From assembly GCF_058153355.1 (NCBI RefSeq), contig NZ_CM177019.1: a stretch of 64,000 nucleotides of DNA; one strand, given 5' to 3'. How positions within the stretch are numbered: position 1 is the stretch's first letter; every line of letters begins with the position of its first letter. Position numbers: made by a program. Below are positions 31,201-37,200 of the stretch, one piece after another.

Positions 31201-34200
31201 CTATAAATTTTGAGCCACCCATCGCGCTCCTCGGTCATCTCGATGGCACCATCAACACCAAGAATTGCCTCACCAACCACGCGCACTAACCCTTTTTTTA
31301 ATTTGCCAACAAATAAAAGAGTATCTTCATCATTCGCTTCATTTAACGAAGTGCCGTGCTGAAGCCACACAACATCAACGTTTAGAAATTTCGCAAGCGC
31401 ATTCATTTTTTCCTGACGTGGTAAAGACTCAGCATTAAACCATTTGCTAACGCCTTTGGACGAAAGAGAAAGGGCGCGGGCTATGGCCATTCCCCTACCA
31501 TGTTCATCAAGACCAGCTTCTTTACAGGCTTGCGCTAGCCGCTGGGCGAATTCTTTGCGCACTTTTTCATTCTGAACCATGAGTACGATACTAAAGCACT
31601 TGCAAAAACTTTCAGTTCAATCATAATGCGTACTGAAAGTACGAAAAAGGATGTCCACATGCAAAATCTTGATGAGCCGATTAAAGGTGTCGGCATCCCT
31701 GAAGTTGCGAAGGCTTGTGGAGTTAGCGAAAGGGCTGTCTATAAGTGGCTCAAAAATGGCTTCCTCCCTAAGACTGAGTTTTTTGGGAAAACGAAATACG
31801 CATCAAAAATCGAAGAGATTTCTGGTGGCAAATATCAAGCAAGCGAAATGCTTGAAATAAGCAAAAAGAACCTTCTGGCTGCATAAGTAACACCGCTCTT
31901 TGTAACAATGGACATTCGTCCTACGTCGCTGAAAAGCGAATCCCAGAATATCTGACCAACTAAGGCCATATGCGTTTCCACGCATACCTTTCAACTAACT
32001 ATTCACTATTGGAAATCTTAAGAAATGGAACAAACAAGTTACAGCAAACTATCACAGCGCGATGTTGATCGCGCAGAAACAGATTTACTCATCAACCTGT
32101 CAACGCTTACCCAGCGCGGTCTGGCAAAGATGATTGGCTGTCATGAATCGAAGATAAGCAGAACGGACTGGAGATTTATTGCTTCGGTCTTGTGTGCTTT
32201 CGGAATGGCATCAGACATCAGTCCGATTAGCAGGGCTTTTAAGTATGCGCTTGATGGACTCACCAATAAAAAACGCCCGGTGTGCAAGACCGAGCGTTCT
32301 GATCAAATACAAATGGAATTTTAACAACATCCAACGAGGTAATTATATGCGAAAAACGCAGGAAAATAAACGCGTTAATCACCGAAAAGATGTGCTACGT
32401 GACCAGTTTTATCAGGGGGTTAATCCAGAAATAGCTGTGCCACTGAGAGAAATACTTAACAGGTACAAAACTTCGGAGAAGTCAAAATGAGCATGAGTCT
32501 TATGGCTAAGGCCATGAATATAAAGGTTGGCAACCCACTGAGAAAACTGATTCTGATTAAACTTGCCGATAACGCCAATGATAATGGCGAATGCTGGCCT
32601 TCATATCAACATGTCGCTGACCAGTGTGAGGTGAGCAGATCGACAGTAAAAAGTCACATTAGGGCACTGGAAGAGATGGGTCTTTTGAAAAGGGAATGCA
32701 GAAGAAAAGGAGAGCTTAACCAGTCAAACGTTTTTTATCTGACGCTGGATAATGCACAACAAATCCCACCAGAATCAGGTGGGGCAGGAGCTGCCCGGGG
32801 TGGGGCAGGAGCTGCCCTAGGGGGTGGGGCAGGAGCTGCCCCCAGAACCTATCACTCTTTTGAACCAGTCAATGAACCTAAAAACATTATGTTCGAACAT
32901 GTCCGAACGGAGTGTGAAAAAACTCCTGACCGTCACGAAGAAACCGACAAGGCATTCGAGGAAATATTCTGGTGTGCAGGCATGCGGAAAGCCGGGAAGA
33001 AAAACGCAGCTTCGGCATTCAGAACACAGTTCAGGGAATGGCGTAAAACTACCAGGGGTACAGCAAGCGAGTTTGCCACAATGCTGGCAGAAGACATCGC
33101 ATGCAGGAATGGTAAGCAGTTCGGATTCGACAGGTTGTTACCATCGAGCTACCTGAACGGTCAGCGCTGGAACGACGAGAAGCCTGAAACCATTCAACCG
33201 CAATCCAAACCATCATCCGCAATTACCGTATCGAAAACTGGCTACGTGTTTTTCGACAGGTGAACCATGAAATCAAAAATCAAATCGCTACTGGTCGCTG
33301 GTTATAACCACGGCTGGTTAAGTATTTCGTTTGTCGATTTCTGGTTTAAAAATCTCGACCTCAGCAGCCATTAGCTCCGTCAATGGCGTTTAAACGCCAT
33401 CAGACGCGCTGTAGCACGATAAACGACGGTCTGACAGGGAAACCGCAAGATAAAAAAATATTGCGTCAGAATGCGATTCAGGACGGTTAAAGTATGAGTC
33501 CATCAGAACTTAGCGACCTGCTTTGGGCGCAGGTTGACAGGGTGGCTCCGCACCTGTTGCCAAACGGCAAGAAAGAGGGGCATGAGTGGGTTGCCGGTAA
33601 CGTCAACGGTGACAAGGGAAACAGCCTTAAGGTCAACCTTAGCGGCAAGAAAAAATGGGCTGATTTCGCTGAGGGAGACGGCGGTGACATGCTTGATTTG
33701 TGGATGGCATGTCGTGGAATTAACCTGCATCAGGCTATGCAGGAAGCGAAAGCATTTCTCGGTATCAAGGATGACGATCACCATTTCGATGCCAGACGTG
33801 AGAAGAAATTCTCCAGACCTGAACGCAAGAAAATCGCCCGCTACGTTACCAGAACAGAATCCCATCTTGAGTACCTGCAATCGCGTGGCATATCGCCAGA
33901 AGTCGTAAAGCGCTACGAGGTTGTCAGCGGCAAGGTGTGGAATGGAGAACGAGAACTGGATGCTCTGGTGCTTCCGTACAAACGCGATGGTGAGTTGTTG
34001 CAGGTCAAGCGAATCAGCACTGAGCGCCCGGACGGGAAGAAAGTCATTATGGCAGAAGGTGATTGCGAACCTTGCCTGTTCGGATGGCAGGCTCTGGACG
34101 CTGGCGTGAGGGCGGTTGTGCTTTGCGAAGGCGAAATTGATTGTATGAGCTATGCGCAATACGGCATCTCGGCGTTATCCGTGCCGTTTGGTGGCGGGAA

Positions 34201-37200
34201 AGGCGCTAAGCAACAGTGGATTGAGTTTGAGTATCACAACCTCGACAGGTTTGAGGAAATATTCATCTCGATGGACGTTGATGATGTTGGTCGTGAAGCT
34301 GCAAGGGAAATCGCAAGCCGACTCGGTGAACATCGTTGCCGTCTTGTTACTCTGCCGTACAAAGACATCAACGAATGCCTGATGAACGGTGTTACCGAGG
34401 ATGAAATCTGGCAGTACATCGGCACGGCATCCTACTTCGATCCTGAAGAACTCTACAGCGCGCGAGAGTTTTACCAGGACACTATCAACGCTTTCTACGG
34501 CAAGCAGCAGTATCTGTTTAATCCACCGTGGGAATCTCTGGCAGATAAATTCCAGTTCCGTGAGGCAGAGTTGACGCTGGTCAATGGTGTGAACGGTCAC
34601 GGAAAAACGGAGGTTGTCGGGCATATGGCACTTGAGGCAATGCGTCAGGGGGTGAAGACGTGCATCGCGTCACTTGAGCTGAAGCCAGGTATTCTCCTTA
34701 AGCGCCTTACCCGTCAGGCGACGTGCTGCAAGATGCCGCCAGTGCTGGAAATTGACTCTGCATTTAAATTTTATGACGAAAGACTTTGGGTGTTTGGCCT
34801 GACCGGAACGGCGAAAGCCGACAGGCTGATCGAAATATTCGACTACGCTCGCCGCCGATACGGCATCCAGTTATTCATCATCGACAGCCTGATGAAATGC
34901 GGCATAGGTGACGATGACTATAACGGGCAGAAAGCATTTGTTGACTCGATTTGTGACTTCAAAAACAAAACAAACTCCCACGTCATTCTCGTTACTCACT
35001 CGCGAAAAGGAGACAGCGAAGAAAAACCAACCGGGAAAATGGACGTAAAAGGCTCTGGAGCGATAACAGACCTGACAGACAACCTTTTTATCATCTGGCG
35101 TAACAAGGCTCGCGAGAGAGCGTTACAGAGAGTTCAGAGTGGTGAAAAGATGTCAGAGAAGGACGAACAGTTACTGGCGTCTCCTGCATCTGTTTTGATG
35201 CTTGAAAAACAACGTAACGGCGAAGGCTGGGAAGGTGGTGTCCCGTTGTTCCTTGACGAGCAATCGCACCAGTTCCTGCAACTTGAATCAGGATCGCCAT
35301 ATAGCTACATCGCCAATATGCCGAAATCGGAATATGACGAAGCGTGGCGACAGGAAAACATAACGGAGTATTAAATGACCATCTACATCACAGAGCTTAT
35401 AACAGGTCTGCTGGTAATCGCAGGCCTTTTAATTTGGGGGAGAGGGAAGTCATGAAAAAACTAACCTTTGAAATTCGATCTCCAGCACATCAGCAAAACG
35501 CTATTCACGCGGTACAGCAAATTCTTCCAGACCCAACCAAACCAATCGTAGTAACCATTCAGGAACGCAACCGCAGCTTAGACCAGAATCGAAAGCTTTG
35601 GGCTTGCCTTGGTGACGTCTCTCGTCAGGTTGAATGGCATGGTCGCTGGCTGGATGCAGAAAGCTGGAAGTGTGTGTTTACCGCAGCATTAAAGCAGCAG
35701 GACGTTGTTCCTAACCTTGCCGGGAATGGCTTTGTGGTAATAGGCCAGTCAACCAGCAGGATGCGTGTAAGCGAATTTGCGGAGTTATTAGAGCTTATAC
35801 AGGCATTCGGTACAGAGCGTGGCGTTAAGTGGTCAGACGAAGCGCGACTGGCTCTGGAGTGGAAAGCGCGATGGGGAGATCGGGCTGCATGACTATCAAA
35901 TCAAATACGCCAGCACACGACAAGGACTGCTGGCAAACGCCACTTTGGCTTTTTGATGCGCTGGATATTGAGTTTGGATTCTGGCTGGATTCGGCAGCGA
36001 GCGACAAAAATGCTCTGTGCGCTCACTGGCTAACTGAGGCCGACGACGCGCTCAATTCTGAGTGGGTAAGCTACGGTGCAATCTGGAATAATCCACCGTA
36101 CAGCAATATCAGGCCGTGGGTGGAAAAAGCCGCTGAGCAGTGCATACAACAGCGACAGACGGTAGTTATGCTTGTGCCAGAGGATATGTCAGTCGGATGG
36201 TTCAGCAAGGCTCTGGAGAGTGTTGACGAAGTTCGCATCATCACTGATGGACGGATTAATTTTATCGAACCATCGACAGGGCTGGAGAAAAAGGGAAACA
36301 GTAAAGGCTCAATGCTGCTGATTTGGCGACCGTTCATCAGTCCCCGGCGAATGTTTACTACCGTATCCAAAGCGGCATTGATGGCGATCGGGCAGGGCGT
36401 CAGGAGGGCGGCATGAGGCGACAGCGACGAAGTATTACCGACATAATCTGTGAAAACTGCAAATACCTTCCAACGAAACGCTCCAGAAATAAACGCAAGC
36501 CAATCCCAAAAGAATCTGACGTAAAAACCTTCAACTACACGGCTCACCTGTGGGATATCCGGTGGCTAAGACATCGTGCGAGGAAATGACTATTTATCCG
36601 GTGCGCCGCCAGAATGACGGCGCGGTGTGGTTAAACGAAGCGGATCTGGAGTTTTTTTCCAGTAGCGCGGGCGAATTTTTTTAGGGTGGCAAATGATGGG
36701 CCGCTGATACCTGATGCGAGATTACTTTCCATTCTGGTGATCGCGGTCGCTTTTGTTCCCATTCGCTCGGCAACTTCAGCCTGAGTTAAGCCAGCTTCTT
36801 TGCGTGCTGCCAGCATTTCATCAAGCAGTGCGAATTCGTCAGCGATAGCGTCGTATTCTGCTTTAAAAGCCGGGTCTTCCATCCATTTGGCTGCCATTTC
36901 GTCGTGTGTCATGGTGGGGAGAGTGCGTTTACCAGTCATGCTTAACCTCCTTCATTCTGGTTTCAGCTTTCTTGCGTTCGGCTGGCGGTGTTTTCTGCGT
37001 TTTCTTTACAAAACTATGCAGCATGATGATGCGTTTCCCTGTCAGAGTGCAGTAAAAAACACGCGCGATCCCATCGTTGCCTTTAATTCTGAGTTCGAAA
37101 AGCCCGTCACCAAAGGCGCTGGTGTGAGGTTCTCCGAGATTGCTGCCATATACCTTCATACGTTCAACGAGATGTTGGTATCGGGCACGCATACTCAATG

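Follow-up and report, generated by a model that had tools for sequence, protein, structure and literature searches.

The window analysed here is a stretch of 64,000 nucleotides (nt) from contig NZ_CM177019.1 of NCBI RefSeq assembly GCF_058153355.1, and it contains the early-right operon of a lambdoid prophage, at the junction of its replication genes and its nin region (table 1). An O-like initiator gene, a gene of 35 amino acids (aa), a primase-helicase gene, ninA with its tR2-type terminator, and ninB are linked here from stop to start, with the exception of the second and third of these, which are parted by 119 nt. We focus on the two small open reading frames (ORFs) that flank the primase-helicase gene, termed ORF35 (35 aa) and ORF26 (26 aa), and on a palindrome of 18 base pairs (bp). 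All three were picked out in an original prediction made from the window alone, and the coordinates and translations given there are correct on re-reading. The ribosome-binding sites (RBSs) proposed for the two ORFs, AGGTGA and GGAG(T), are in place; three bases separate the O-like stop from the ATG of ORF35, the TGA of ORF26 lies within the ATGA (35452-35455) at which ninB begins, and the perfect palindrome stands downstream of ORF35 as described. A small ORF by itself carries no meaning in this region, where 126 ORFs of at least 20 aa occur in 8 kb, and the case for both therefore rests on other phages. Comparison with these identifies ORF35 and ORF26 as real, conserved genes of lambdoid phages that are already annotated elsewhere. 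The reading as a whole, in which a lambdoid replication-to-nin junction carries ORF35 as a member of a family, NinA encoded across tR2, and a palindrome that belongs to a replacement segment, is one that we hold with high confidence.

Table 1. Features at and around the replication-to-nin junction, with positions in the window.
Feature	Position	Strand	Remarks
CI-like repressor	30873-31580	minus	
cro-like ORF			after the CI-like repressor in gene order
nutR-like boxA (cgctcttt) and boxB hairpin (tcgctgaaaagcga)	31895-31940	plus	between the cro-like and cII-like ORFs
cII-like ORF	32025-32324		
O-like initiator	32487-33263		HTH_36 domain
Shine-Dalgarno-like AGGTGA of ORF35	33258-33263	plus	contains the O-like TGA stop, 33261-33263
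ORF35	33267-33374	plus	35 aa; ES18 gp60 / epsilon34 gp51 family
Replacement segment	33365-33493		about 130 bp, between ORF35 and the primase gene
Perfect palindrome atggcgtttaaacgccat	33383-33400		18 bp
Primase-helicase	33494-35374	plus	626 aa; Toprim and DnaB-like/AAA_25 (Pfam); intein-free allele
GGAG Shine-Dalgarno of ninA	35365-35368	plus	6 nt before the ATG
ninA (ORF26), MTIYITELITGLLVIAGLLIWGRGKS	35375-35455	plus	26 aa; phrog_5907
tR2-type intrinsic terminator inside ninA	35404-35435	plus	hairpin 35404-35427, then U-tract
ninB (Orf recombination mediator)	35452-35892	plus	Pfam NinB, 1.1e-54
Dam methylase gene			after ninB in gene order

The description of both ORFs as unannotated holds for the best-matching Escherichia coli records of the Prokaryotic Genome Annotation Pipeline (PGAP) and RefSeq, including the feature table of locus L003, and for phage lambda (NC_001416), but not for ES18 (gp60 and gp63), epsilon34 (gp51 and gp54, 'NinA'), Sf101 (NinA) and P22 (ninA). 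Annotation of the two families reportedly goes back to the genome papers on ES18, P22 and epsilon34. Neither Pfam nor NCBIfam holds a model for ORF35 or ninA, which fits the absence of both genes from the PGAP records examined.

ORF35 matches profile phrog_21848 with E=9.7e-25, over residues 1-34 of the 35-position profile, and is annotated as a coding sequence in epsilon34 (gp51), ES18 (gp60), SaltyDalty and EKP1. Its closest named counterparts, ES18 gp60, epsilon34 gp51 and g341c gp46, are likewise 35 aa long, are 74-89% identical to it, and lie between O-like and primase-helicase genes as in the window. A tblastn search finds it in 44 phage records, each time beside replication genes. The reading frame has 35 codons in every close relative and in the majority of the divergent members of the family; the SaltyDalty, Fraca and EKP1 copies, at 50-56% identity, have exactly 35 codons, are flanked by an O-like gene and a primase-helicase gene, and are joined to them by stop/start overlaps, the initiator stop overlapping the ATG as ATGA in divergent homologues. 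Searching 1.84 billion representative proteins with a profile (cut-off E<=1e-3) yields 26 clusters at 50% identity, mostly of exactly 35 aa and with the same residue pattern. Members stand directly before a Toprim primase-helicase gene behind three types of initiator (HTH_36, Phage_rep_O and one without a Pfam hit); elsewhere they precede a DUF1376 primosomal gene that is followed by the Toprim gene, or precede an O-like gene. In nearly all cases the gene overlaps the primase-helicase or initiator gene that follows it. In some relatives an HNH endonuclease gene has inserted exactly at the ORF35 stop, and there ORF35 stays intact.

Conservation of the frame in homologous phages had been set beforehand as the test on which the prediction would stand or fall, and ORF35 passes it at the level of the protein. 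The core K-x-L-L-V-A-G-Y-N-H-G, in which AGYN-G is invariant, is encoded by codons that differ among phages. Nei-Gojobori counts in the true frame were compared with those in the two shifted frames: at moderate distance, down to ~50% identity, pairs give in-frame ratios of nonsynonymous to synonymous substitution rates (dN/dS) of 0.15-0.25, and the pooled ratio of the corresponding proportions (pN/pS) is 0.42 in frame versus 1.13 and 1.80 in the shifted frames, with Fisher tests on individual pairs reaching p ~4e-4. These counts point to purifying selection on the protein. Most relatives have stop/start overlaps at both ends of this tiny gene, a layout that would also suit a translational-coupling spacer or leader that sets the expression of primase-helicase through a functionless peptide. 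We give that explanation little credence. Conservation of ORF35 lies at the level of amino acids and not of nucleotides, which speaks against a mere spacer; its length is constant at 35 codons across ~35-50% identity; it is retained in the window and in five related loci although coupling to the primase gene has been lost; and in locus L179 an ORF35-type gene lies ahead of the initiator gene instead. The comparisons thus place ORF35 in the ES18 gp60 family, as a real small protein encoded in phage replication modules.

An AlphaFold2 model of ORF35, built from a 21-sequence alignment, has helices at residues 2-15 and 20-29 with a mean predicted local distance difference test score (pLDDT) of 79, and the predicted fold is a two-helix hairpin. 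The neighbourhood of the gene suggests that the protein may be an accessory factor of the replication machinery, for example an adaptor linking initiator and helicase. A literature search for ES18 gene 60 returned nothing relevant. In viral contig L174 (~7950-8105) the 35-aa gene has TAT in place of its TAG stop, and the frame continues for ~15 further codons across the palindrome.

ORF26 lies on the other side of the primase-helicase gene and matches profile phrog_5907 with E=1.5e-17, over residues 1-26 of the 27-position profile. It is 88-96% identical to P22 and lambda-type copies, is named NinA in Sf101, epsilon34 and P22, and corresponds to ES18 gp63, which is noted as 'similar to P22 NinA'; tblastn finds matches in 421 phage records. 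By sequence, then, ORF26 is identified as NinA. In lambda, ninA lies between ren and ninB (L086, 1068-1148), without annotation in NC_001416, and five of its 81 bases differ from the window copy (76/81 identical). The lambda and P22 genes (P22gp53) have 26 codons and directly precede ninB with an ATGA overlap, as in the window, while the gene upstream differs: ren in lambda, gene 12 in P22 and primase-helicase in the window. There, the primase stop TAA (35372-35374) abuts the ninA ATG (35375) as TAAATG, and the ninA TGA overlaps the ninB ATG as ATGA. The arrangement, with ninA between the last replication gene and either ninB or whichever gene of the nin region comes next, is alike in Sf101, epsilon34, ES18, P22 and lambda. 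A variant of 32 aa, HK97 gp56 and HK544 gp48, agrees with the window copy in its first 11 codons and likewise follows the replication genes, but its tail is longer and an additional gene lies between it and ninB.

Two collections of loci were used to examine this arrangement. The first comprises 80 loci anchored on identical NinB, a choice of anchor that makes it unbiased for ninA; the ninB start could be located in 78, and 72 of these have a ninA-type start upstream, directly adjacent to ninB in 57, one gene further upstream in 12 (the HK97 type) and, in three, cut off from ninB by the insertion of an HNH endonuclease gene. The second comprises 263 copies, retrieved by a degenerate pattern that covers codons 1-11 and used to survey Shine-Dalgarno sequences and junctions; the frame of ORF26 is open in almost all of these related loci, so that it too is conserved as the original prediction required. 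Seven unrelated upstream modules, among them primase-helicase, ren and a DnaB-type helicase, join precisely at the ninA ATG in this set. GGAG occurs at -14 to -6 in six of the seven (background 1.8-2.6%); the remaining module has AAGGGG. Downstream, at ~15 types of junction, the ninA frame closes at 24-34 aa, mostly in overlap with the next start.

These junctions bear on the suggestion that ORF26 is an accidental open frame, lying across a conserved terminator and the ninB RBS and translated to no purpose. The terminator and the RBS do account for the nucleotide conservation of the stretch, some loci retain the hairpin without a full ninA, and the frame is absent from the annotation of NC_001416 and of the best-matching PGAP records. 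An accident is nevertheless very improbable: GGAG has been placed at the right spacing by six of seven unrelated upstream modules (p ~3e-10), module boundaries coincide with the ATG, and the many downstream junctions end the frame in overlap with the next start. In lambda, moreover, the NinA start site is active and 'not weak', and mutation of its RBS or AUG shifts the output of a reporter (Li et al., PMC4824070, who also cite ribosome profiling of lambda). Within the frame, codons 2-10, which lie upstream of the hairpin described below, have 12 variable sites, of which seven are synonymous versus 26% expected (p=0.017).

NinA thus appears to be a translated frame, and the same DNA is also a terminator. 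Lambda tR2 stops polymerase that has not been modified by N after the replication genes, whereas N-modified polymerase reads through. A terminator scan and folding place an intrinsic terminator in codons 10-21 of the window ninA, with stem AGGTCTGC / GCAGGCCT, loop TGGTAATC and U-tract TTTTAATTT; the tR2-type stem has eight pairs, five of them G-C, around a loop of 8 nt, and folds to -13.5 to -14 kcal/mol. Homology and map position identify this element as a terminator of the lambda tR2 type, and termination is the best-established function of the ORF26 stretch. The P22 record has a terminator inside ninA, noted as similar to that of phage lambda, and terminator features underlie the ninA match in Lahn2 (where it is labelled tR2), HK620, Sf6 and HK75. 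Stem variants are mostly C-to-U changes that preserve a G.U pair. Copies of the HK97 type carry another hairpin (GGGCUA/UAGCCC) and a U-tract at these codons and yet keep the frame open, a replacement that is strong evidence for selection on the terminator and is compatible with selection on the frame too.

The window allele differs from lambda at two positions across hairpin and U-tract. A change from GGC to GGT turns a G-C pair into G.U, and a change from TTT to TTA (F19L) breaks the U-tract, giving UUUUAAUUU. Among 20 haplotypes at 92 loci this haplotype is unique, the T-to-A change in the U-tract occurring by itself also in locus L235, and the allele folds to -13.5 kcal/mol versus -15.7 kcal/mol for the consensus.

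In lambda, tR2 lies 30 bp after the NinA AUG and 16 bp before the stop codon. Translation of NinA cuts termination by only ~10%, and maximal efficiency (~0.9) is reached only with an upstream stop codon more than 30 bp away (Li et al., PMC4824070). In the window, 29 nt separate the primase stop from the hairpin, and these are spanned by the conserved 5' part of ninA. This fixed part of the gene may act as a spacer that frees tR2 from repression by terminating ribosomes, because ~30 nt is the published distance at which tR2 escapes (PMC4824070). On transcripts that read through, the short translated frame would pass ribosomes on to ninB.

The original prediction gave the 26-aa ORF a single transmembrane (TM) helix and raised the idea that the peptide is toxic. 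The peptide is indeed hydrophobic, with a best 19-residue Kyte-Doolittle mean of 2.09, but the origin of its core in the tR2 hairpin and U-tract had been overlooked: the 'TM helix' GLLVIAGLLIW is the translation of these two elements. NinA could still be a small membrane peptide with a function of its own, as a toxin, exclusion factor or membrane modulator, its overlap with the terminator being secondary or co-selected. The hydrophobic stretch is followed by a basic tail, GRGKS, and three unrelated middle sections of ninA (the tR2 hairpin, its HK97-type counterpart and the L022 type, which has no hairpin) are all hydrophobic in frame, the other two frames of both hairpins being closed or polar; the active start site in lambda and the skew of codons 2-10 towards synonymous changes are also in its favour. 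Against it, the product is recorded as hypothetical or of unknown function, its 3' tail varies freely with the downstream module, and the L022-type tail is AT-rich DNA beside an endonuclease gene, whose composition by itself gives Ile, Leu and Tyr. Nor does the gene resemble a type I toxin with its own promoter and an antisense RNA or other dedicated control, as no promoter-like site and no Rfam RNA are seen at ninA, which is embedded in a coupled operon. We regard a membrane function as doubtful though not far-fetched, and the idea of a toxic peptide finds no support.

Several observations weigh against a role for the NinA peptide, or against other parts of the reading that combines the ES18 gp60 family with NinA and tR2. 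In CP-1639 a 1-nt deletion in the loop ends the ninA frame at codon 13 while the hairpin is kept, which also speaks against a membrane peptide; three loci retain the hairpin part alone, directly before ninB; and in a few draft contigs ninA is frameshifted close to its 3' end. The peptide thus appears to be dispensable in some phages. The substitution test on ninA is limited in power by the high nucleotide identity, and the survey of 263 copies is biased for the N-terminal part of NinA because its search pattern demanded those residues. The window terminator allele may be weaker than that of lambda. For ORF35, the proposed role is drawn purely from gene neighbourhood, and in the window 119 nt uncouple ORF35 from the primase gene, while the C-terminus of this copy departs from the consensus.

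The separation of ORF35 from the primase gene is due to a rare segment of ~130 bp. An overlap of the ORF35-type stop with the primase ATG occurs in Sf101, epsilon34, ES18 and g341c and in most of a set of 80 loci gathered around the primase gene; in Sf101 and epsilon34 the segment is absent. In the window it alters the last three residues of ORF35 to SSH, so that the C-terminus reads DLSSH instead of DLRS-x or NLRES, and primase codons 2-4 are AGT CCA TCA versus ACG CCA AGT in relatives. A search of 5426 complete E. coli genomes, phage records and viral contigs finds the segment five times, which makes six loci with the window: once among the genomes (FDAARGOS_943), once in a phage record (Klebsiella phage phiKp_30) and three times in viral contigs. 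Its flanks are conserved around a hypervariable centre (~33428-33445), in which comparison of four variants by eye reveals no consistent compensatory pattern. As a known RNA the segment was rejected, as it has no match in Rfam at E<=1 and its overall fold is ordinary (z = -1.3). As a promoter it offers one weak 9-of-12 match (33431-33459), and the variants do not preserve the -35 hexamer of this match. A third ORF (33383-33490, 35 aa), starting from the ATG of the palindrome, was also rejected as a gene: it has no Shine-Dalgarno sequence, no family match and no homologue but the phiKp_30 copy, and it is intact in the window only, being broken in three of the four segment variants by a stop codon (L003/L176) or a frameshift (L004, L175 and L174).

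The palindrome atggcgtttaaacgccat is part of this replacement segment and not of ORF35. No other palindrome in the window reaches 16 bp, but 25 of 100 Markov-simulated 64-kb sequences contain one of at least 18 bp, so that it is not statistically unusual. As RNA it forms a hairpin of 7 bp with four flanking pairs (-13.8 kcal/mol, z = -3.8) and no U-tract. It is perfect in two of the four segment variants (the window and L003/L176), and the others have a C-to-T change, which leaves a G.U pair in plus-strand RNA, and a mismatch in the flanking stem. A protein operator, a hairpin for RNA processing or attenuation, or a homing-endonuclease target could each account for such a site. Its singularity in the window, its stable hairpin, the retained G.U pair and its location in a hotspot of HNH endonuclease genes and an intein would fit a function of this kind. 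A palindrome of this length arises by chance in about a quarter of windows, however, half of the variants are imperfect, there is neither a U-tract nor an Rfam match, and almost all relatives function without the whole segment; we therefore consider a functional site improbable. Recurrence of the type seen in REP/MITE-like elements (repetitive extragenic palindromes and miniature inverted-repeat transposable elements) or operators is not found either, there being no other long palindrome in the window and only the six loci with the segment.

In relatives, HNH endonuclease genes occupy both junctions of the primase-helicase region. A 164-aa NUMOD4-HNH gene lies exactly at the ORF35/primase junction in relatives that carry it (L009, 351-845), and the L009 allele TTGAGTCCATCAGAA has primase codons 2-4 as in the window. 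At the other junction, L022 (~2340-2952) has a 203-aa HNH gene inside ninA; a hydrophobic NinA variant of 34 aa precedes this insertion, and the tR2 hairpin follows it. Some relatives have a primase-helicase of 968 aa, owing to a ~342-aa intein (Hint and LAGLIDADG) in the helicase domain, while the window copy is intein-free; carriers of the intein are L003 (1794-4700), L004, L175, L176 and L302 (974-3880), and they include Stx2a phages and Klebsiella phage phiKp_30. None of these HNH and intein elements is present in the window, and the 130-bp segment is without similarity to them. A remnant of the L009 endonuclease gene was likewise rejected as the source of the segment, as there is no similarity beyond primase codons 2-4. 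More speculatively, the segment might be a variant or scar of the junction that homing endonucleases target in relatives, and possibly an endonuclease-resistant allele.

Other features of the region accord with its lambdoid character or stand apart from the two small genes. The nutR-like boxA and boxB between cro and cII make N-type antitermination likely in the window operon. Within the O-like gene, a unit of 22-24 bp is repeated in 2.9 copies (32778-32841, plus strand) and encodes a Gly/Ala-rich stretch; these repeats are probably origin iterons, and the origin of ES18 and epsilon34 is annotated within the equivalent gene. A complete IS66-family transposase gene (27399-28970, plus strand) lies to the left of the immunity region, and in viral contig L071 the apparent end of the same transposase is joined within ninA, just before TTTGGGGG. 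Between the Dam methylase gene and an ant cassette, a toxin-type gene (Gp49-like, PF05973) and an HTH_3 gene overlap (36631-37339, minus strand), and the pair is a probable HigB/HigA-like toxin-antitoxin system. Rfam matches to c4-a1b1, isrK and C4 antisense RNA follow at 37327-37528 (plus strand), the c4-a1b1 match scoring 45.3 bits against a gathering score of 46.7 bits and thus slightly below it. They lie directly upstream of an ORF6N/P22_AR_C antirepressor gene (ORF 37532-38257), and RNA and antirepressor together are a P1/P7 immI-like ant control cassette within the nin region.

The current understanding of lambdoid phages is unchanged by these findings. The overlap of ninA and tR2 is already in the literature, and knowledge of it guards against calling a hydrophobic peptide a new toxin. 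Since PGAP and RefSeq omit both genes from the best-matching prophage records, and Pfam and NCBIfam have no model for either, genome scans will go on rediscovering them. What is mildly new is the breadth of the 35-aa family and its linkage to replication modules, together with the rare segment at the junction, and the family offers an inexpensive and testable candidate for a small part still lacking from a common phage replication module. A bolder proposal, which we put forward tentatively and think more apt to fail than to hold, has ORF35 as a widespread and unrecognized accessory subunit of T7-gp4-like primase-helicase modules and, separately, ninA as a dual-coded gene in which terminator RNA and membrane peptide are both selected. 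If this were true, ORF35 could, for example, be the adaptor delivering the helicase to the initiator bound at the origin, and ribosomes that start on tR2-terminated transcripts would run off a non-stop message.

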